NCBI GenBank assembly: GCA_965215505.1
Contig: OZ244065.1
Coordinates: 2,464,001-2,528,000, forward strand
Length of the DNA: 64,000 nt
Direction of reading: 5' to 3'
Source: Capsulimonadaceae bacterium
GTDB lineage: Bacteria; Armatimonadota; Armatimonadia; Armatimonadales; Capsulimonadaceae
The position numbers were made by a program, and so were the translations under genes. Below are positions 35,038 to 42,481 of the stretch, piece after piece. A model generated the notes under the pieces. That model saw only the letters and a program-made list of their open reading frames with translations, ran no database searches and had not been told where the DNA came from. The stretch's first letter is position 1. Every line of letters starts with the position of its first letter.

Positions 35038-35373
35038 TCAACCCGCCGCGAACTCCGTGTCTTTCCAGCGGGAAGGGTGCTTGAATCCCAGCACGATGCG
35101 GTCTTTAGGCACACCCGCCGCGACCAGATCCTCCGCGACGCCATCCTCCGTGCCATCCTGCTGAATCCAGAGCTTCCCGCCCAGTACGTCAATGTGCAGC
35201 AGCGGCCCGTAGATGCGATACCCGTCCTCCCAGCCGACTTCCACGAGGAGGTAGTGATCGCCCGCCCGGTCAAATATCGTCTCGCAGACGATCTCCGCGT
35301 CGGTCGTCAGGAACTCGGCGTACTCCGTCAGCACCCGCTCCACGGCGGCCCGGTAGGCGTTTAAGGCATCCAT
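35038..35373 (-). CDS. xisI: XisI family protein
   Basis: FDRAGDHYLLVEVGW, GKLWIQQDGTEDGVAEDLVAAGVPKDRIVLGF. Confidence 0.9.
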   Translation of the reverse strand: MDALNAYRAAVERVLTEYAEFLTTDAEIVCETIFDRAGDHYLLVEVGWEDGYRIYGPLLHIDVLGGKLWIQQDGTEDGVAEDLVAAGVPKDRIVLGFKHPSRWKDTEFAAG

Positions 35374-35780
35374 TGGACAATCGCCTCCCGGTCGGGGTCG
35401 AAGGAGAATAGGCGGACGACCCCGTCTTCCAGCATCACCTGGCCCGCCTCTTCCTCGAAGACACTGCGCCGCGCCGTTTCCGGCAGGGCCAAATAAAGAA
35501 TCCTTTCAGGCTCGGACCGCCTCAACAGGTGCGCGTACAGCACGAACTGTCCGACGGCATCTTCCAAATCCTTCATGTCCGAAGAGCGCCCAAAGCCTTT
35601 GATCTCCACCGCGATCTTTTCCGGCCCCCGCTCCGCCGCCAGCAGCCGTTCCGCGCCCAGGTCCACAAACAGGTTCTTGCCCCGCCGCAAGCGGAGCCGG
35701 AGCGGGTCATGCGTGATCGTCCAGCCGTCTTTGACCAGGGCGTTCTTGACAGTATCATGGTAGAGGTCGTGGGCGGGCAT
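35361..35780 (-). CDS. xisH: XisH family PD-(D/E)xK protein
   Basis: DLYHDTVKNALVKDGWTITHDPL, VDLGAERLLAAER...KIAVEIK, AVGQF, ERILYLA. Confidence 0.9.
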   Translation of the reverse strand: MPAHDLYHDTVKNALVKDGWTITHDPLRLRLRRGKNLFVDLGAERLLAAERGPEKIAVEIKGFGRSSDMKDLEDAVGQFVLYAHLLRRSEPERILYLALPETARRSVFEEEAGQVMLEDGVVRLFSFDPDREAIVQWMP

Positions 35781-35786
35781 GATGCT

Positions 35787-36302
35787 CTACATCGCCCCAC
35801 TTTTGCCGAACAGCCACCCAGGTTCCAAGCCCGCCGCCGCGCACAAAGGCTGGTTTTCCAGGCGCAGTGCCGTCAGATCCTGCTCTCGTGCCTCGTTCTT
35901 TTCGCCTGCTTTGTCATCTTTGGCAAAGTGACTGCTAGGGAGTTGGTCGAGCAGGCTGATTTGGTCGAGCAGGCTGATTTGGTCGAGCAGGCTGATTTGA
36001 TCGAGCAACCGGCGAGTATCCTCAGAAACCGCAGCCCGCTCCGCCTGTCGGGCCTCCCTCTCCTCCGCCTCATGGCTATCCGGTGCCATTTCTTCCGTCA
36101 TTCGTTCAACTTGTGCCAGGAGAAGCCGCGCCCGCACCCTATGCCATGCTTCTTCCTCCTTGGAAGGCTCCGGCATGGCGAACAGGTAGCTCAGGCTGCC
36201 CAGCGCAAGTTGCTCGGGCGTAATCCCCTGTTGCCGCGCCTGCTCCGCAATGGCGCTTTCTATCTCAGGAGTGAGTGTGATGGTCAATGGTCTAGTCTCC
36301 AC
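35787..36302 (-). CDS. hypothetical protein with antitoxin-like N-terminus
   Basis: LTITLTPEIESAIAEQARQQGITPEQLA resembles N-terminus of 36713-36961; contains LLDQIS repeats. Confidence 0.65.
   Translation of the reverse strand: METRPLTITLTPEIESAIAEQARQQGITPEQLALGSLSYLFAMPEPSKEEEAWHRVRARLLLAQVERMTEEMAPDSHEAEEREARQAERAAVSEDTRRLLDQISLLDQISLLDQISLLDQLPSSHFAKDDKAGEKNEAREQDLTALRLENQPLCAAAGLEPGWLFGKSGAM
35943..36007. repeat. tandem repeat, 18 bp x3 plus partial
   Basis: TTGGTCGAGCAGGCTGAT x3 then TTGATCGAGCA. Confidence 0.9.
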
Positions 36303-36305
36303 TGC

Positions 36306-36713
36306 CTATGGCTTGAGCCAGTTGTCGCGGGACAGGTTCGGGATGCGCTTGAAGTGGTTCTCGTTGTTGGTCACGCAAACCAACCCGTTCTCCATGGCCG
36401 TAGCAGCAATCAAGATGTCCGCATCCCCGATCAACTGCCCGCGCTGATGCAGATCGCCGTAAATGGCAGCCGCCCGTTGAACCACGGCATCTGTCAGGGG
36501 CAGAACTTCGCTGACCGCACAAAGGCTTTCAAACGCGGTGATCTGAACCAGCGCATTTTTGGCCCTCAGCCCGCGCAGGACTTCATAGCGAGTGATGAGC
36601 GAGAACGTCAGTATCCGGTAGGTCGCCAGGTAGCTGCGCGAGTGCGAGAGCGCAACCGGGTTCTGCTTGATGACGGCCGAGAGTGTGTCCGTGTCCAGCA
36701 AAGCCTTCGGCAT
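36306..36713 (-). CDS. vapC: VapC-family PIN-domain toxin
   Basis: LLDTDTLS, ITRYEVLRG, IGDADILIAATA, VTNNENHFKRIPNL. Confidence 0.93.
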   Translation of the reverse strand: MPKALLDTDTLSAVIKQNPVALSHSRSYLATYRILTFSLITRYEVLRGLRAKNALVQITAFESLCAVSEVLPLTDAVVQRAAAIYGDLHQRGQLIGDADILIAATAMENGLVCVTNNENHFKRIPNLSRDNWLKP

Positions 36714-36961
36714 TAGAAGGACTGCCTCGACCCGGCGAAGTTGCTCCGGTCAAGGGCGATCTTCTCCACGTCCGTGACTTCCTGCTCCGACAGCCCTGCA
36801 TACACCTGGGCTGCAAGCCCCAAAATCTCGTCCGGCGTCATCTTGGGCGCGACGAAGAGGCTCCGCAGGCTGTCCGAAACAAGCCGCTCTGGGGTTGTCC
36901 CTTCCCGTTGGGCCTGCTCCGCAACGGCGTTCTCTAGCTCAGGAGTGAGTGTAATGGTCAT
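36713..36961 (-). CDS. putative antitoxin (RHH-like)
   Basis: 82 aa, TAATG-coupled to vapC; MTITLTPELENAVAEQAQREGTTPE. Confidence 0.8.
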   Translation of the reverse strand: MTITLTPELENAVAEQAQREGTTPERLVSDSLRSLFVAPKMTPDEILGLAAQVYAGLSEQEVTDVEKIALDRSNFAGSRQSF

Positions 36962-37076
36962 CAGTCAGGTTTCCTCTGCATCTACTGTATCCGGTCGCCC
37001 TTGCTCCTGTTGCACACCTCGCACGCAACTCCACGTTCCGCGCCGTGTTGCTGTTGCAAGTGAGAGAGGGGCAATG

Positions 37077-37493
37077 TTACAGGCTCAAAGGCACCAAATC
37101 AGCCTGCCAAATATCTAGGGTGCGGAATATTGGCAAGGCTTCACCTCGTAGAACGGTCCAGCCTTCCGGTAATTCGCTCGTTCCCATATGAAAATCCAGG
37201 CGCTCAGCAAATTCGAGTGACACTGCTACCTGAGCCAAGGCTGGGCAGGCTTGGAAATGCGACGGGAAGAACGCTATACAAGCATCAAGCAGAGCATAGG
37301 GGTTGTCAGACCCGGCTGGGATGATTGTCTCAATCTTCCCAATTGGCTTTATGGTCTGGTCAAAGTAATGCACTTGAAGCCATTGTCGGTCTGAGTTGCC
37401 GACTAAGATCTGGAAGAAGATCGGGTTAACACCATCTGCTCCCTGGAAGCCACCTAAGCCTCCAACACAATAAATCTTGGAAAATCCTGCCAT
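37077..37493 (-). CDS. hypothetical protein (partner of HEPN fusion)
   Basis: AAGGAG RBS before MAGFSKIY; 28 bp after upstream gene; AT-richer than flanks. Confidence 0.7.
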   Translation of the reverse strand: MAGFSKIYCVGGLGGFQGADGVNPIFFQILVGNSDRQWLQVHYFDQTIKPIGKIETIIPAGSDNPYALLDACIAFFPSHFQACPALAQVAVSLEFAERLDFHMGTSELPEGWTVLRGEALPIFRTLDIWQADLVPLSL

Positions 37494-37521
37494 CAAAGCT
37501 CCTTTAGAACCGCTAGCCTTT

Positions 37522-38385
37522 TCAACCAAAGGGGCTTTTATTCTGTTCCGCGCCGCTCTCTGCAAACGCCTTGTCTAGAGTGTACCGGAATATCTTCAAC
37601 AATTCCTCTAGAGAGGCATTGATCCGCTCATAGTCCCGCACGACGCCCTTACCACGATGCGTGATATTAGAGCGTATCTGATAGTAGTATTCCAGGGACT
37701 TCTTTGGATTGCTAGGATCAAGTAACGCCTTCTTATCAGGCTGATCCGCTCGAAAAACGATACGATCTTCGGTGACAAAGCGTTTTAGAGCCTCAGCAAA
37801 AGCTAGCTCGCCAGCTAGAGCATTTATTTTAGGCATCACCTTATCGCCCAAGTGGTATCGGAGCGACACATAGCGCTCAATGGCTGACCACAACAACAGG
37901 TAGGCCATCTGTAGCCGAAACAGGGGCTTCAGGTCCCACTCAAAGACGGCGTTAGCCTGTAGAGTCTCATCTATTACTTCCAAGGCAGCCGTAAACAACG
38001 GATCATTTCTGCCATCCCATTCCTCATCCTCAAAGGGGATGCTTCCCTTTGTGGGGCTTCTACCGAACAACACGTTAACGTCTGTGCCCTGAACTGATGC
38101 AACACCCCAATAGTAATGCTTGTCAGGCTCGATTTCGGCAATTCTTCGATAAGCGGCCTCAACAGCCTCGGGTTTGAAGGTAAGTATGATGCCGATACAA
38201 GTGCCTGAGTGTCTAGGCTTTTGATTGATTATGGGAAGACCGTCCCGAATTAGCAACTCGCCCTTGATTTCACAACCTGGTTTTGTCTCCACAACCAAAT
38301 CTTTTAAGCGAAGGTAGCCAAGTTGGCCTGGCTTGAATATACCGTATGCGAAAAAGGGGTTGGTTATGTCAGGTGGATTATCCAT
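37522..38385 (-). CDS. gamma-glutamylcyclotransferase-like N-domain fused to HEPN-like C-domain
   Basis: FFAYGIFKPGQ (GGCT/AIG2-like F.YG.LK.G) ... AYLLLWSAIERY ... YQIRSNITHRGK (RxxxxH); own TATAAT and GAGG RBS. Confidence 0.7.
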   Translation of the reverse strand: MDNPPDITNPFFAYGIFKPGQLGYLRLKDLVVETKPGCEIKGELLIRDGLPIINQKPRHSGTCIGIILTFKPEAVEAAYRRIAEIEPDKHYYWGVASVQGTDVNVLFGRSPTKGSIPFEDEEWDGRNDPLFTAALEVIDETLQANAVFEWDLKPLFRLQMAYLLLWSAIERYVSLRYHLGDKVMPKINALAGELAFAEALKRFVTEDRIVFRADQPDKKALLDPSNPKKSLEYYYQIRSNITHRGKGVVRDYERINASLEELLKIFRYTLDKAFAESGAEQNKSPFG

Positions 38386-38413
38386 GTTTTCCTCTAGGTC
38401 CCATTATACCACC

Positions 38414-38453
38414 AAAAAGAAGGGGGCAAGCTGCTGGTACAGCCTGCCCCCTC
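38414..38453 (-). terminator. ppdK terminator
   Basis: AGGGGGCAGGCTG-tacca-GCAGCTTGCCCCCT followed by T-tract on minus strand. Confidence 0.75.
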
Positions 38454-38468
38454 CGTCACGTCACGACC

Positions 38469-41144
38469 CTAGCGGTCGCGGTTGCTGCCGCCGTCCTTGA
38501 GGTTGGCCTGGGCCGCCGCCAGGCGCGCGATGGGGACGCGGTAGGGGGAGCAGGAGACGTAGTTCAGGCCGATCTTGTGGCAGAAGGCGACCGAGGCCGG
38601 CTCGCCGCCGTGCTCGCCGCAGATGCCCAGCTTGATGTTCGGGCGGACCTTCTTGGCGAGTTCGACGCTGATCTCCATCAGCTTGCCGACGCCGTTCTGG
38701 TCGATGGACTCGAAGGGGTCGCCGGGGAGGATCTTCTGGGCGACGTAGGGCTTCAGGAACTTGTCCGAGTCGTCGCGGCTGAACCCGAAGGTCATCTGCG
38801 TCAGGTCGTTGGTGCCGAACGAGAAGAACTCGGCCTCCTCAGCGATCTCGTCCGAGGTCAGGGCGGCGCGCGGGATCTCGATCATGGTCCCGAACATGTA
38901 GTCGATGGTTTCGCCGTGCGATTCGGTGACTTGCTTGGCGACCCGCTCCAGGTTGGTGCGGACGGCCTTCAGCTCGTTGACGTGGCCGACGAGCGGGATC
39001 ATGATCTCCGGGTGCGGGTCCGCGCCGTTCTTCTTGGCGGCGATGGCCCCTTCCAGGATGGCGCGCGTCTGCATCTCGACGATGCCGGGGAAGACGATGG
39101 ACAGACGGCAGCCGCGCAGGCCCATCATGGGGTTGATCTCGTGCATCCCCTCCACCTTGTGCAGCAGGTCGGCCTTCTCGGCAAGCTCGGGGCTGTCCGG
39201 CGAGGTGGCCTTGAGCGTGGCGACCTCGGCGATGAGCGAGTCCATGGAGGGCAGGAACTCGTGCAGGGGCGGGTCAATCAGGCGGATGGTGGCGGGGCGG
39301 CTGCCGAGGGCTTCAAAGATGCCCTGGAAGTCGTTGCGCTGGAAGGGCAGCAGGGCGTCAAGCTGGACCTTGCGGTCCTCCTCGGTGGCGGCCAGGATCA
39401 TGGCCTGGACGATGGGGCGGCGGTCCTCGGCGAAGAACATATGCTCCGTGCGGCACAGGCCGACGCCTTCCGCGCCGAACTTGATGGCGAGGGCCACGTC
39501 TTCGGGCGTGTCCGCATTGGTGCGGACGCCCAGACGCTTGACGTCGTCGGCCCAGCCCAGTAGGGTGCCGAACTCGCCGGTCATCTCGGGGTCCACGACT
39601 TCGACGGTCCCGTCAATGACTTCGCCCAGGGTGCCGTTCAGGGAGATCGGGTCGCCCTCGTTGATGGTCTTGCCGTTGACGGTGAACGAGCGCGGGCCGA
39701 CGGAGATGTCGGAGCAGCCGGCGACGGTGGGGATGCCAAAGCCGCGTGCGACCAGGGCCGCGTGGCTGGTCATGCCGCCGCGCTCGGTCAGGACGCCCTC
39801 GGCGGCCAGCATCCCCTTGAGGTCGTCGGGGGAGGTGTCGGCGCGAACCAGAATGACGCGCTTGCCCTCGCCGCCCTTGCCCATCTCGGCGGCGCGGGTG
39901 GCGTCGAAGACGGCGACGCCGGTGGCCGCGCCCGGCCCGGCGGGAAGGCCGGTCGCGAGCAGGGTGTACTTGGCGCCCGGCTTGATGATCGGGTGCAGGC
40001 ACTGGTCAAGAAGCTCGGGGTTGATGCGGGCGAGCGCGGTCTCCTTGGAAATCAGGCCCTCGTTGACGAGGTCCACGGCGATCTTGACGGCGGCAGGCCC
40101 GGTGCGCTTGCCCGAGCGGCACTGGAGGATGAACAGCTTGTTGTGCTCGATGGTGAACTCGATGTCCTGCATGTCCTTGTAGTGCAGCTCCAGGCGGGAA
40201 CAGATCTCGTCGAACTGGCGGTACATCTCGGGGTTTTGGGTCTTGAGTTGGGAGATGGGCATGGGGGTGCGGACGCCCGCAACGACGTCCTCGCCCTGGG
40301 CGTTCATCAGGTACTCGCCGAAGACCTCTTTGTTGCCGTCGGAGGCGTTGCGGGTGAAGGCGACGCCGGTGCCGCAGTCCTCGCCCTGGTTGCCGAAGAC
40401 CATGCTCTGGATGTTGACGGCGGTGCCCAGATCATCGCTGATCTTCTCGCGCTGCCGGTACAGGATGGCGCGGTCGTTGTTCCAGGACTTCCAGACGGCG
40501 GCGACGGAGTCCTGAAGCTGGACGATGGGGTCCTGGGGGAACTCGTGGCCGGCATTCGTCTTGATGTGGGCCTTGTAGGTCTCGCAGAGCTGCTTCAGAT
40601 GCTCGCCGTTGACCTGAAGGTCGTCGGTGACGCCGAGGTCCTTCTTCATGGCGTAGAAGATGTGTTCGAAGTCGTGCTTGGCGAGGTGGTTGGTGCCGTC
40701 GGAGTAGGCGACGTCCGAGAGCATCATCAGGAAGCGCCGGTAGCTGTCATAGACGAACCGCTCGTTGCCGGTGAGCTTGATCAGCCCTTCCACGGTGGCA
40801 TCGTTGAGGCCGAGGTTCAGGACGGTGTCCATCATGCCGGGCATGGAGAACTTGGCACCCGAGCGGACCGAGACGAGCAGCGGGTTTGATGCGTCGCCCA
40901 GCTTCTTGCCGGTCTTGGTCTCGACGGCGGCCAGGGCGGCCTTGATCTCGTCCATCAGGCCGTCGGGGAAGTGCCCGCCGTTCTTGGTGTACTCGTTACA
41001 GGTGTCGGTCGTGATGGTGAAGCCGGGGGGGACGGGCAGCCCGATGTTGCTCATCTCGCAAAGGTTCGCGCCCTTGCCTCCCAGTTCATCACGCATCGTT
41101 GCGTTGCCCTCTTCAAAGAGCCACACGCGCTTGGTGTCTGACAT
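38469..41144 (-). CDS. ppdK: pyruvate, phosphate dikinase
   Basis: LGGKGANL, SVRSGA.SMPGMMDT, GGMTSHAA phospho-His, GLCRTEHMF, FSFGTNDLTQ, GICGEHGG. Confidence 0.98.
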   Translation of the reverse strand: MSDTKRVWLFEEGNATMRDELGGKGANLCEMSNIGLPVPPGFTITTDTCNEYTKNGGHFPDGLMDEIKAALAAVETKTGKKLGDASNPLLVSVRSGAKFSMPGMMDTVLNLGLNDATVEGLIKLTGNERFVYDSYRRFLMMLSDVAYSDGTNHLAKHDFEHIFYAMKKDLGVTDDLQVNGEHLKQLCETYKAHIKTNAGHEFPQDPIVQLQDSVAAVWKSWNNDRAILYRQREKISDDLGTAVNIQSMVFGNQGEDCGTGVAFTRNASDGNKEVFGEYLMNAQGEDVVAGVRTPMPISQLKTQNPEMYRQFDEICSRLELHYKDMQDIEFTIEHNKLFILQCRSGKRTGPAAVKIAVDLVNEGLISKETALARINPELLDQCLHPIIKPGAKYTLLATGLPAGPGAATGVAVFDATRAAEMGKGGEGKRVILVRADTSPDDLKGMLAAEGVLTERGGMTSHAALVARGFGIPTVAGCSDISVGPRSFTVNGKTINEGDPISLNGTLGEVIDGTVEVVDPEMTGEFGTLLGWADDVKRLGVRTNADTPEDVALAIKFGAEGVGLCRTEHMFFAEDRRPIVQAMILAATEEDRKVQLDALLPFQRNDFQGIFEALGSRPATIRLIDPPLHEFLPSMDSLIAEVATLKATSPDSPELAEKADLLHKVEGMHEINPMMGLRGCRLSIVFPGIVEMQTRAILEGAIAAKKNGADPHPEIMIPLVGHVNELKAVRTNLERVAKQVTESHGETIDYMFGTMIEIPRAALTSDEIAEEAEFFSFGTNDLTQMTFGFSRDDSDKFLKPYVAQKILPGDPFESIDQNGVGKLMEISVELAKKVRPNIKLGICGEHGGEPASVAFCHKIGLNYVSCSPYRVPIARLAAAQANLKDGGSNRDR

Positions 41145-41235: not shown

Positions 41236-41569
41236 CTACAGCGGCTCAATGCTCACAATGCCGCCGTCTCGGCCCTGAAATTGTACATCGCTGTCTTCCA
41301 GCAGTGTCATCCCAATCAAGGGCTCGCCTTCCAGTGCTAGCACTTCGACATCGCGTTCCTCGCCATCCCAAAGCAGCGCCACTTGGTAGACTTCCAATAA
41401 CAGCGGACTACCATCTGCCAAACCAGCGGGTTGAAGGCACAGGAATGGCAGTGCAAGTTTCGCACAAGCCTCTGGAGCAAGCGTAGCAACACCTAAATCC
41501 ACTGTCCAACACGAACTCGACATCCGCCGTTTGCCCCTCGGGACCAGAAAGGACAAGCCCTGTAATCAC
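41236..41569 (-). pseudogene. clan AA (retropepsin-like) aspartic protease, frameshifted
   Basis: GTG 41569 frame reads MITG...EFVLDSGF; continuation GVATL...LADGS...WDGEERDVEV...PLIGMTLL is in another frame. Confidence 0.7.
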
Positions 41570-41832
41570 TGTTTGGTCAGTCTCGGGCCGCTGATGCTCT
41601 CAACGAAAGGAAAGCCTACGCGGATGCCGTACAACGCTGCTCCCGGACGCTTGGCGAGGGCACGCTTATTGGCCGCCAGCGAGTCAGGCCTGATCTCGTA
41701 CTCGCCTGACTCGATATCAATGATCACGGCTTGGCCTTTGTATTCTTTTTCTAGTTGGCCGCGCAGGCGGGAGGCATAGATCTCCTCACCCCGCCGTGCG
41801 ATCTCTTCGTTTGTAAAGCGTGGGTGCGGCAT
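41566..41832 (-). CDS. small protein typically upstream of clan AA proteases (DUF5678-like)
   Basis: EEIARRGEEIY...GQAVIIDIESGEYEI...YGIRVG; GTGA overlap with protease. Confidence 0.75.
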   Translation of the reverse strand: MPHPRFTNEEIARRGEEIYASRLRGQLEKEYKGQAVIIDIESGEYEIRPDSLAANKRALAKRPGAALYGIRVGFPFVESISGPRLTKQ

Positions 41833-41874
41833 GACTTGTTTTCCCTCCCCAGGAGTGGGTTCGTTTTGACAATT

Positions 41875-42195
41875 TCAGGCGTTTGCCGTAGCGAGTTCCC
41901 GTCCCTGCTTCTGGGCAGCCTCACCGCGCTTCATGTTCTCGTCGAAGTTCCGGGTCAAGCCCTGAAAGCCGTCGAAGGCTTCTTCAATGCCTTGCAAATG
42001 GCGGCGGAAGAGCGACGGCGTTTCTTCCCCGTCTTCCGCATGGAAGTCGTTCATCAGCATGAACCCGAGGGCGTCCGCATGGTCGAGTATCCGCGCTAAG
42101 ACCTGTGGGTCAGTGTTTTTGTACCCCACGTAGCGCGTGAAGGTGATTACCCTATGAATCGCTCGAATACCGCTGTCGAAAAAGTTCGGGTTCAT
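41875..42195 (-). CDS. hypothetical helical protein (possible immunity protein)
   Basis: GGAGG RBS before MNPNFF; overlaps upstream gene end. Confidence 0.6.
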   Translation of the reverse strand: MNPNFFDSGIRAIHRVITFTRYVGYKNTDPQVLARILDHADALGFMLMNDFHAEDGEETPSLFRRHLQGIEEAFDGFQGLTRNFDENMKRGEAAQKQGRELATANA

Positions 42196-42481
42196 CTTCT
42201 GCGACCTCCACATCCGCGACAGGCGTACCAAAATTTCCCGGCTTGATGATAATCGGCGGCAGGGGATCACCGCGCTGGGTCATCCGGTAGATCACGCCCC
42301 AACTTGCCCCGCGTGGGCCGTTGTCCTCAATCAAGGGCTTCGGCGACAAGAGGGAAGAGATCGCGACCTGTATGATCTCGTCTTCGCCATCAATCCGGGC
42401 GGCGATCATCTCGTGGCCGCAGCGCAGAGCCGCTTTGGCACGCCGAACTCCCTCCACGATCTCATAGGTCATTTCGCCCAT
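42152..42481 (-). CDS. small ParB/Srx-like protein, apparently circularly permuted
   Basis: YEIVEGVRRAKAALRCG...IAA at N-terminus; VAISSLLSP and LPPIII downstream. Confidence 0.6.
   Translation of the reverse strand: MGEMTYEIVEGVRRAKAALRCGHEMIAARIDGEDEIIQVAISSLLSPKPLIEDNGPRGASWGVIYRMTQRGDPLPPIIIKPGNFGTPVADVEVAEDEPELFRQRYSSDS

Follow-up and report, generated by a model that had tools for sequence, protein, structure and literature searches.

We analyzed a 64,000-nucleotide stretch of the genome of a Capsulimonadaceae bacterium (phylum Armatimonadota; assembly GCA_965215505.1, contig OZ244065.1, positions 2,464,001 to 2,528,000), hereafter the window, with a focus on a two-gene cassette next to ppdK. 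Both genes are on the minus strand and co-directional; G1 (protein P0001, 37522..38385) is an open reading frame (ORF) translated into 287 amino acids (aa), and G2 (protein P0002, 37077..37493) encodes 138 aa. On balance, the evidence leans toward the view of G1-G2 as a new accessory module for defence or abortive infection, in which a HEPN ribonuclease (RNase) effector would be controlled via a GGCT domain and G2. It most likely represents an anti-phage system family of the abortive-infection type that has not yet been described. According to the structure models, G1 combines an N-terminal GGCT/AIG2-fold domain with a C-terminal HEPN domain, and its partner protein, G2, has an unrecognised fold. 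The folds, the conserved catalytic motifs, the coupling and fusion of G2 with GGCT proteins, the sporadic horizontal distribution and the location in a defence slot carry this reading.

Domains and conserved residues of G1 and G2

The AlphaFold (AF2) model of G1, built from 45 homologues, had a predicted local distance difference test score (pLDDT) of 92.5 and a predicted template modelling score of 0.89. Residues 8-127 (38005..38364, minus strand) form the GGCT/AIG2-like domain, for which Foldseek found PH0828 (1v30, E 1.2e-4) and human GGACT (3jub, E 3.6e-3, probability 1.00), and the VIA structure comparison found YkqA (2qik, Z 13.2), 1v30 (Z 12.8), and 5c5z (Z 12.4). The HEPN domain, supported by VIA matches, covers residues 128-282 (37540..38004, minus strand). 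Residues 124-277 matched the AMPylated HEPN toxin 8xdj (Z 10.4, root-mean-square deviation 3.0, 122 aligned residues), followed by 1wwp (10.3), HI0074 (1jog, 10.1), HepT (7ae2, 9.8), and 5yep (9.0), with Las1, Csx1, and the sacsin HEPN domain at lower scores. An inserted beta-hairpin was also predicted in this domain (residues 208-222 of the AF2 model). These fold matches on a confident model support the GGCT-like-HEPN fusion that a preliminary description, made from the letters of the window, had proposed for G1.

For a helical bundle, a Z near 10 does not settle the matter by itself, and the RxxxxH motif provides a second line of evidence. Conservation was scored over 60 proteins, namely the window protein and 59 others translated from G1 loci in genomes and metagenomes, with identities as low as ~33%. 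The motif RSNITH (residues 238-243; 37657..37674, minus strand, read directly in the sequence) was placed by model and translation at the junction before the last helix (residues 248-282), and its residues R238, N240, and H243 were kept in 59, 58, and 59 of the 60 proteins, respectively, and were invariant in all 45 rows of alignment A1. The RxxxxH signature highlighted in the preliminary description is thus well conserved. Additionally, W166 and R171 occurred in 60/60 proteins and E170 in 58/60, all three within the motif LLWSAIERY (residues 164-172). In the GGCT half, E86 (codon 38128-38130) was found in 58/60 proteins and Y14-G15, part of the motif FFAYGIFKPGQ (residues 11-21), in 56/60, the other four being gaps. 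Furthermore, in an hhalign comparison with GGACT domains that Pfam recognises (E 1.8e-4, probability 49%), FFAYG fell on AVYGTL and E86 on the Glu of the FEG motif. Therefore, judging from these residues, both halves of G1 look catalytically competent.

Profiles of G1 and of its N-terminal domain searched against the PDB gave only tetratricopeptide repeat and designed-protein matches, which were judged spurious. Versions of G1 consisting of the C-terminal half only (residues ~124-283), with no GGCT domain, were also observed at L035:7326-8039 and in L056-L058; the copy in L035 is part of a conjugative element, with ArdC and TraG next to it, and others, from Actinomycetota, are apparently degraded.

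The AF2 model of G2 (pLDDT 91.4) consists of a long beta-hairpin with the Gly-rich motif GGLGGFQGADG (residues 11-21) at its tip, then a third strand, and then helices. Residues invariant among 39 homologues included G3, S5, G11, G14, G15, D20, G21, R36, Q37, W38, D70, C83, and R116. The fold had no match by Foldseek against the PDB (best E 1.1), by VIA over 48,161 chains (best Z 3.7, far below the usual background best of 7-8), or in BFVD (best E 0.47). In addition, hmmsearch against PDB sequences returned 0 matches, and no usable match was obtained in the ESM Atlas. With no match in Pfam, NCBIfam, or PADLOC either, G2 stands outside any recognised family, in line with the preliminary description, whose author had recognised no family for it.

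Both families are sizeable. At E <= 0.001, G1 had 883 clusters of relatives and G2 had 285, nearly all of them unnamed or annotated as 'hypothetical', and these numbers of relatives indicate that both are real genes. Each gene is present as a single copy in the genome of the window.

Partners and natural fusions

The gene neighbors were compared from both sides. For G1, 58 genome loci were collected from a wide diversity of bacteria and archaea, and the counts cover the 46 whose G1 ORF was 700 nt or longer; for G2, the gene next to it was classified in the best 80 of 142 confirmed metagenome loci. A GGCT-containing gene adjoined G2 in 39 of the 80 metagenome loci. The partner was G1 with its GGCT-HEPN order in 20 loci, a permuted protein with an N-terminal HEPN domain (invariant R-S-N-x-x-H-x-E-K) and a C-terminal GGCT domain in 14 loci (including L101, assigned by BLAST cluster only), and a stand-alone canonical GGCT protein of ~150-180 aa in five loci. 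No GGCT gene was found next to G2 in the remaining 41. The domain assignments were supported by Pfam, which detected GGACT in 5/6 permuted partners scanned, and both AIG2_2 and GGACT in 4/4 stand-alone partners.

These pairs are tightly arranged. Among the 38 G2-partner pairs with scored orientation, 37 had both genes on the same strand and 32 had the partner downstream of G2 on the same strand, mostly with a gap of 4 nt or less or with an overlap; G2 came first in 17 of the 20 G1 pairs. On the genome side, G2 accompanied G1 in 7/46 loci, being adjacent in six and 1.4 kb off in L027. In L001, the adjacent G2 is found downstream of G1, the same order as in the window, and in the remaining five adjacent loci it is found upstream of G1. 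Three apparent long G2 'fusions' (L082, L083, and L144) were dismissed because the ORFs had been extended artefactually in GC-rich DNA; the protein actually starts at MAGYS.

Seven further G1 loci of the 46 carried an unrelated partner of ~140 aa, designated c2b, with the motifs WGGADV, ELSWLF, and SKYDFYG. It adjoined G1 in G2's stead in L023, L025, L026, L028, L033, and L037, as well as in the partial loci L049 and L051, and was fused to the N-terminus of G1 in Methanobrevibacter (L046:7593-8852). No Pfam or PADLOC match was found for c2b, and the idea that it is a distant G2 relative was rejected at the sequence level (hhalign probability 0.1%).

Natural fusions were drawn from the G1 family matches and from 267 G2 relatives recovered in an exhaustive HMMER search of 1.84 billion representatives. 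G2 and G1 are joined in a single chain in P0062 (413 aa) and P0110. P0245 (684 aa) combines G2 with a Gamma_PGA_hydro domain (E 1e-38), a HEPN motif, and GGACT (E 4e-8), P0365 (437 aa) combines two GGCT domains with G2, and P0261 joins G2 to the start of a GGCT domain. In P0267 (806 aa), the fusion partner of G2 is a McrB-like AAA_5 protein with a match to the PADLOC candidate PDC-M26A (E 7e-48), indicating that G2 is not restricted to GGCT partners. Among G1 proteins, P0023 has an N-terminal GFA domain (PF04828), a domain with a reported link to glutathione, and P0051 has an N-terminal RusA-like region.

Because G2 also pairs with stand-alone GGCT proteins that have no HEPN domain, it tracks the GGCT rather than the HEPN domain; this weakens the earlier suggestion of an antitoxin role for G2. 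The recurrent pattern is an association of G2 with the GGCT fold in which HEPN is optional, and the GGCT-HEPN core takes interchangeable N-terminal or adjacent modules. The strict co-conservation of the two genes implied by the preliminary description did not hold, since G1 occurred without G2 in 39/46 genome loci and G2 without a GGCT partner in 41/80 metagenome loci.

Genomic setting of the cassette and its relatives

In the same genus, the segment downstream of ppdK is variable. When positions 36300-38700 of the window were compared with 20 same-genus genomes, 19 matched; in 18 of these, only the last ~230 bases of ppdK and some stretches on the vapBC-like side aligned and the cassette did not. 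The one genome that matched the cassette as well (76% identity) was G401, which carries the L001-like contig; there, ppdK was 93% identical to that of the window and G1 only 73%. We also examined the ppdK-downstream region of seven sister genomes, where the cargo varied and was low in GC. It held an N6_N4 methylase and a helix-turn-helix (HTH)-PvuII restriction enzyme in G112, a type II methylase and a 322-aa unknown protein in G366, the PADLOC candidate PDC-S11 (E 2e-111) in G130, a 258-aa unknown protein (G+C content (GC) 0.46) in G103 and G284, and a 221-aa unknown protein (GC 0.48) in G066, and it was empty in G263. This is the pattern of a defence hotspot, with G1-G2 as one of its alternative cargos, and the defence-island setting suggested in the preliminary description is borne out by a slot that carries restriction-modification (R-M) systems or PDC-S11 in sister genomes. 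As an observation on the slot itself, the 258-aa and 221-aa genes (L162:1068-1841 and L163:1187-1960 on the plus strand; L161:3228-3890 on the minus strand) had no Pfam or PADLOC match and are, judged by position, further candidate defence genes.

The cassette is sporadic across the phylum. Within a sample of 401 genomes, G1 was found in seven, including the window's own and two with weak matches to the N-terminal domain only, and in 0/17 same-genus and 0/28 same-family genomes of that sample. G2 was found in three of the 401, two of which lacked G1. Together with a GC of 0.48 against about 0.65, this distribution points to recent and horizontal acquisition. Neither protein matched anything among 50,697 phage records or in IMG/VR contigs; G1 was found on only two plasmids, both haloarchaeal and with the RefSeq name 'gamma-glutamylcyclotransferase', and no G2 was found on plasmids. 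A phage or plasmid origin was rejected on these grounds.

To examine the surroundings of G1 relatives, ORFs up to 4 kb from G1 were selected greedily and scanned with Pfam in 37 of 48 prepared loci (L001-L019 and L031-L048, with L020-L030 left out). By our own tally, made without a background control, R-M, toxin-antitoxin, Abi, or mobile-element genes were present in 20/37 loci. G1 was located inside a type I R-M operon in L041 (hsdM-hsdS-G1-hsdR-YgjP), and the c2b-G1 fusion of L046 follows hsdR in another, with hsdM further on; in L053 and L037, G1 is beside hsdR or hsdS. Other arrangements were Mrr, G1, and Zeta toxin (L042), AIPR, c2b, and G1 (L033), and G1 near type II or IIG R-M systems (L005, L009, and L048). 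Toxin-antitoxin genes near G1 included ParE, HigB, and an addiction-module antitoxin (L015, L012, and L013) and MazF near the L001 cassette. Mobile-element genes were represented by TrwB (T4 coupling protein) and TrwC relaxase on either side of G1 (L006), ArdC and conjugation genes (L017 and L035), an integrase (L016), and transposases (L004 and L008). The homologues were not located in metabolic operons and were often beside R-M, toxin-antitoxin, or conjugation genes, as would be expected from the defence role first proposed for them.

In the window, the cassette is bounded upstream by the intrinsic ppdK terminator (38419..38454, minus strand; 16-bp stem with 10 GC pairs, and a T-run); ppdK itself is at 38472-41144. 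From this terminator to the G1 ATG (38385), the minus strand reads GGTGGTATAATGGGACCTAGAGGAAAAC-ATG and contains a candidate extended -10 box, TGGTATAAT (38403..38411), and a Shine-Dalgarno (SD) sequence GAGG (38391..38394) between the box and the ATG, both read from the sequence. This box was not among the sites listed by a promoter consensus scan because it has no -35 hexamer. The 28-nt spacer between G1 and G2 contains the SD sequence AAGGAG of G2 (37499..37504, minus strand), 5 nt before its ATG. The GC of the cassette was 0.47-0.50 (37200-38400), about 0.48 overall, compared with 0.62-0.72 in ppdK and 0.58-0.61 on the vapBC-like side. All of the sequence features quoted in the preliminary description (the motifs, the two genes, the low GC, and the cassette's own -10 box) were found on the minus strand, and its account of an AT-richer cassette right after the ppdK terminator (GC ~0.48 against 0.58-0.72 in the flanks) was accurate.

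Pfam identified the neighbors as a PIN protein (36309-36713) with an 82-aa upstream gene, XisH, XisI, a glyoxalase, GreA, and ppdK; the PIN gene and the 82-aa gene read as a vapBC-like pair, so that the vapBC and xisHI neighbors named earlier are both present. Several side observations were made around the cassette. XisH/XisI, a glyoxalase, and a toxin-antitoxin pair occur downstream of the cassette in both cassette-bearing genomes (35041-35780 in the window, minus strand, and L001:10814-11616), and the toxin-antitoxin pair differs, with PIN in the window and MazF in L001. A 171-aa ORF between XisH and the PIN gene (35790-36302, minus strand) contains the tandem hexapeptide ISLLDQ four times, and the DNA repeat reads LVEQAD three times on the opposite strand; it had no Pfam or PADLOC match. 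In addition, four small ORFs (106, 88, 131, and 109 aa; 41239-42481, minus strand; GC 0.55-0.58) are located just upstream of ppdK, also with no Pfam or PADLOC match, and may represent another accessory islet, on the flank of ppdK opposite to the cassette.

Proposed function, alternatives, and relation to known systems

Among the effectors of immunity and toxin systems, HEPN RNases form a major class, and the triggers of only a minority are known. In the module proposed here, G1 would be the effector, and its C-terminal HEPN domain is predicted from its residues (R238, N240, and H243, probably with E170 and R171) to be a metal-independent RNase. Activation of this domain would result in cleavage of cellular and/or phage RNA and in a halt of translation, which would be the basis of a protective, abortive-infection phenotype. 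The GGCT-fold domain may act as the control domain, binding or turning over a gamma-glutamyl-linked ligand and thereby setting the state of HEPN. The retained GGCT catalytic residues, together with the fusions to a poly-gamma-glutamate hydrolase and a GFA domain, point to a ligand of this kind as the putative trigger. G2 would be a dedicated partner (sensor, adaptor, or ligand-presenting subunit) that acts via the GGCT domain, and we infer its physical binding to that domain. The preliminary description had pictured a similar gating of the RNase, with G2 as antitoxin or sensor.

Several results weigh against a defence module of this type. Both genes often occur apart: G1 had neither G2 nor c2b in 32/46 genome loci, and among the 34 metagenome loci with at least 900 nt on both sides of G2, 20 had no GGCT neighbor and 14 had a partner, so the pairing appears facultative. 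About a third of the G1 loci had housekeeping surroundings (L002, L010, L014, L018, L019, L032, L034, and L045), and the tally of defence-related contexts given above has no background to be read against. At the sequence level, Pfam gave no HEPN family match for G1 (E <= 1) or for 45 relatives (E <= 0.01), and no sequence profile tied G1 to any named HEPN family. G1 also fell below every Pfam threshold, including those of PF06094 and PF13772, GGACT was detected in only 3/45 relatives (E <= 0.01), and a profile of 30 G1 N-terminal domains found no solved GGCT structure by sequence. As for the fold, a VIA Z under about 13 may mean only a common arrangement in the case of helical bundles. Lastly, G1 and G2 had no significant match in Pfam, NCBIfam, or PADLOC (none at E <= 1 in PADLOC-DB v2), and the HEPN-GGCT protein, the stand-alone GGCT protein, c2b, the c2b-G1 fusion, P0245, and P0365 had no PADLOC match at E <= 0.001.

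A small gene tightly coupled to a HEPN gene, and placed first in most G1 pairs in the usual antitoxin-toxin order, would also suit a toxin-antitoxin or addiction module, in which the HEPN domain of G1 would be a growth-arresting RNase toxin and G2 (elsewhere c2b) its protein antitoxin, stabilising the island without sensing phage. HepT-type toxins are the best structural matches of the HEPN domain, and toxin-antitoxin genes are found around the cassette (the PIN/vapBC-like pair in the window and MazF in L001) and beside G1 elsewhere (ParE, HigB, and Zeta toxin). Nevertheless, we regard such a module as rather improbable, because the supposed toxin is usually without an antitoxin in the G1 genome loci, G2 is alone in most of the roomy metagenome loci, and G2 is paired or fused with GGCT proteins lacking HEPN (five loci and P0365). 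Single-chain G2-G1 fusions exist, G2 has no DNA-binding fold recognisable by Foldseek or VIA, and the cassette and its flanks have no MNT nucleotidyltransferase, which a HepT toxin would need. Alternatively, the genes could serve gamma-glutamyl metabolism, with G1 as a working cyclotransferase, a HEPN-like part that only binds substrate or nucleotide, and G2 as a helper in salvage or detoxification. The RefSeq name of the homologues ('gamma-glutamylcyclotransferase'), the conserved catalytic Glu86 and Y-G motif, the fusions to a poly-gamma-glutamate hydrolase domain (P0245) and to the GFA domain (P0023), the pairing of G2 with plain GGCT enzymes, and the housekeeping surroundings at some loci are consistent with this role. 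However, non-catalytic HEPN domains usually lose the RxxxxH RNase signature, whereas R-x-N-x-x-H is kept in 58-59 of the 60 proteins compared. The sporadic occurrence across bacteria and archaea (0/28 same-family genomes for G1), the low GC, the variable slot shared with R-M systems and PDC-S11, the embedding of G1 in type I R-M operons, and the clustering of neighbors, which gave no conserved metabolic genes, also argue against a metabolic function, and we consider it distinctly unlikely.

A more specific form of immunity would be a gamma-glutamyl-sensing system, in which G2 captures or presents an infection-specific gamma-glutamyl molecule and the GGCT domain binds or cyclises it, switching on HEPN. 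The poly-gamma-glutamate hydrolase and GFA fusions, the GGCT-only G2 pairs, and the McrB-like NTPase joined to G2 would fit such a system, and the hydrolase/GFA, GGCT-only, and McrB-like variants could be readouts of one chemical cue by different effectors. According to one study, conserved phage modules encode GGCT, ATP-grasp, and amidoligase enzymes (PMC11945000), which makes a phage-derived gamma-glutamyl cue conceivable, although speculative. In this detailed form, we view the proposal as a long shot. The same phage modules and the low GC and mobility of the cassette could be taken to mean that it is cargo from a prophage or from a phage counter-defence set. Such an origin is highly improbable, given that neither protein was matched among the phage records or IMG/VR contigs searched and that no phage structural or integrase genes flank the cassette in the window.

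Returning to the favored anti-phage module, HEPN is wired to a GGCT-fold domain in both domain orders, and G2 follows GGCT through three architectures and several fusions. If G1-G2 is a defence system, gamma-glutamyl chemistry would join the small set of chemistries that control bacterial immunity, a function would be assigned to two sizeable 'hypothetical' families, and a first handle on a new protein fold would be provided. Additionally, the ppdK-downstream slot represents a compact natural hotspot in the genus. Literature searches, with subscription-only papers outside their reach, yielded, among the papers listed, no relevant one linking HEPN with gamma-glutamyl cyclotransferase, AIG2, GGCT, or phage defence, and none on AIG2-like toxin-antitoxin systems or gamma-glutamyl phage thymidine hypermodification. 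The absence of the cassette from PADLOC, Pfam, and NCBIfam also agrees with the novelty that was first claimed for it.

Among known systems, the type I R-M-associated anticodon nucleases PrrC and RloC are comparable in position, as some G1 homologues likewise lie inside hsdM-hsdS-hsdR (L041 and L046), and a place inside a type I R-M operon is the classic position of PrrC. Both they and G1 are predicted RNases that would be restrained until infection. G1 differs from PrrC/RloC in lacking an ABC-ATPase domain and is unrelated to them in sequence, and the G1 of the window is not beside R-M genes. With the HepT-MntA type VII toxin-antitoxin system, G1 shares the Rx4H motif and its C-terminal domain has HepT toxins as the best structural matches; it differs in that no MNT nucleotidyltransferase gene is present in the cassette or flanks, that its HEPN domain has an inserted beta-hairpin and a fused GGCT domain, and that it has no Pfam DUF86/HepT match. 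The fold, the Y-G motif, and the position of the catalytic Glu are common to G1 and the GGACT/AIG2-like cyclotransferases (PF06094 and PF13772; 3jub, 2qik, and 1v30), from which G1 is distinguished by its scores below Pfam thresholds and by its fusion to HEPN.

In layout, G1 also resembles ApeA, AbiV, and similar single-protein HEPN defence effectors with an N-terminal sensor domain, which, like G1, have an N-terminal non-nuclease domain followed by a C-terminal HEPN domain with Rx4-6H and occur in accessory or defence contexts, often as solo genes. ApeA is reported to be small-molecule-activated in a preprint (bioRxiv 10.64898/2026.01.26.701840). Unlike these proteins, G1 has no sequence match to the Pfam or PADLOC models of their families, its N-terminal domain is GGCT-fold and enzyme-like with the catalytic Glu retained, and it has a dedicated partner, G2, with a predicted novel fold. 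HEPN effectors with sensor domains are already a known kind, and what is new, as far as our searches reach, is the GGCT-HEPN/HEPN-GGCT architecture, the fold and family of G2, and the c2b partner.

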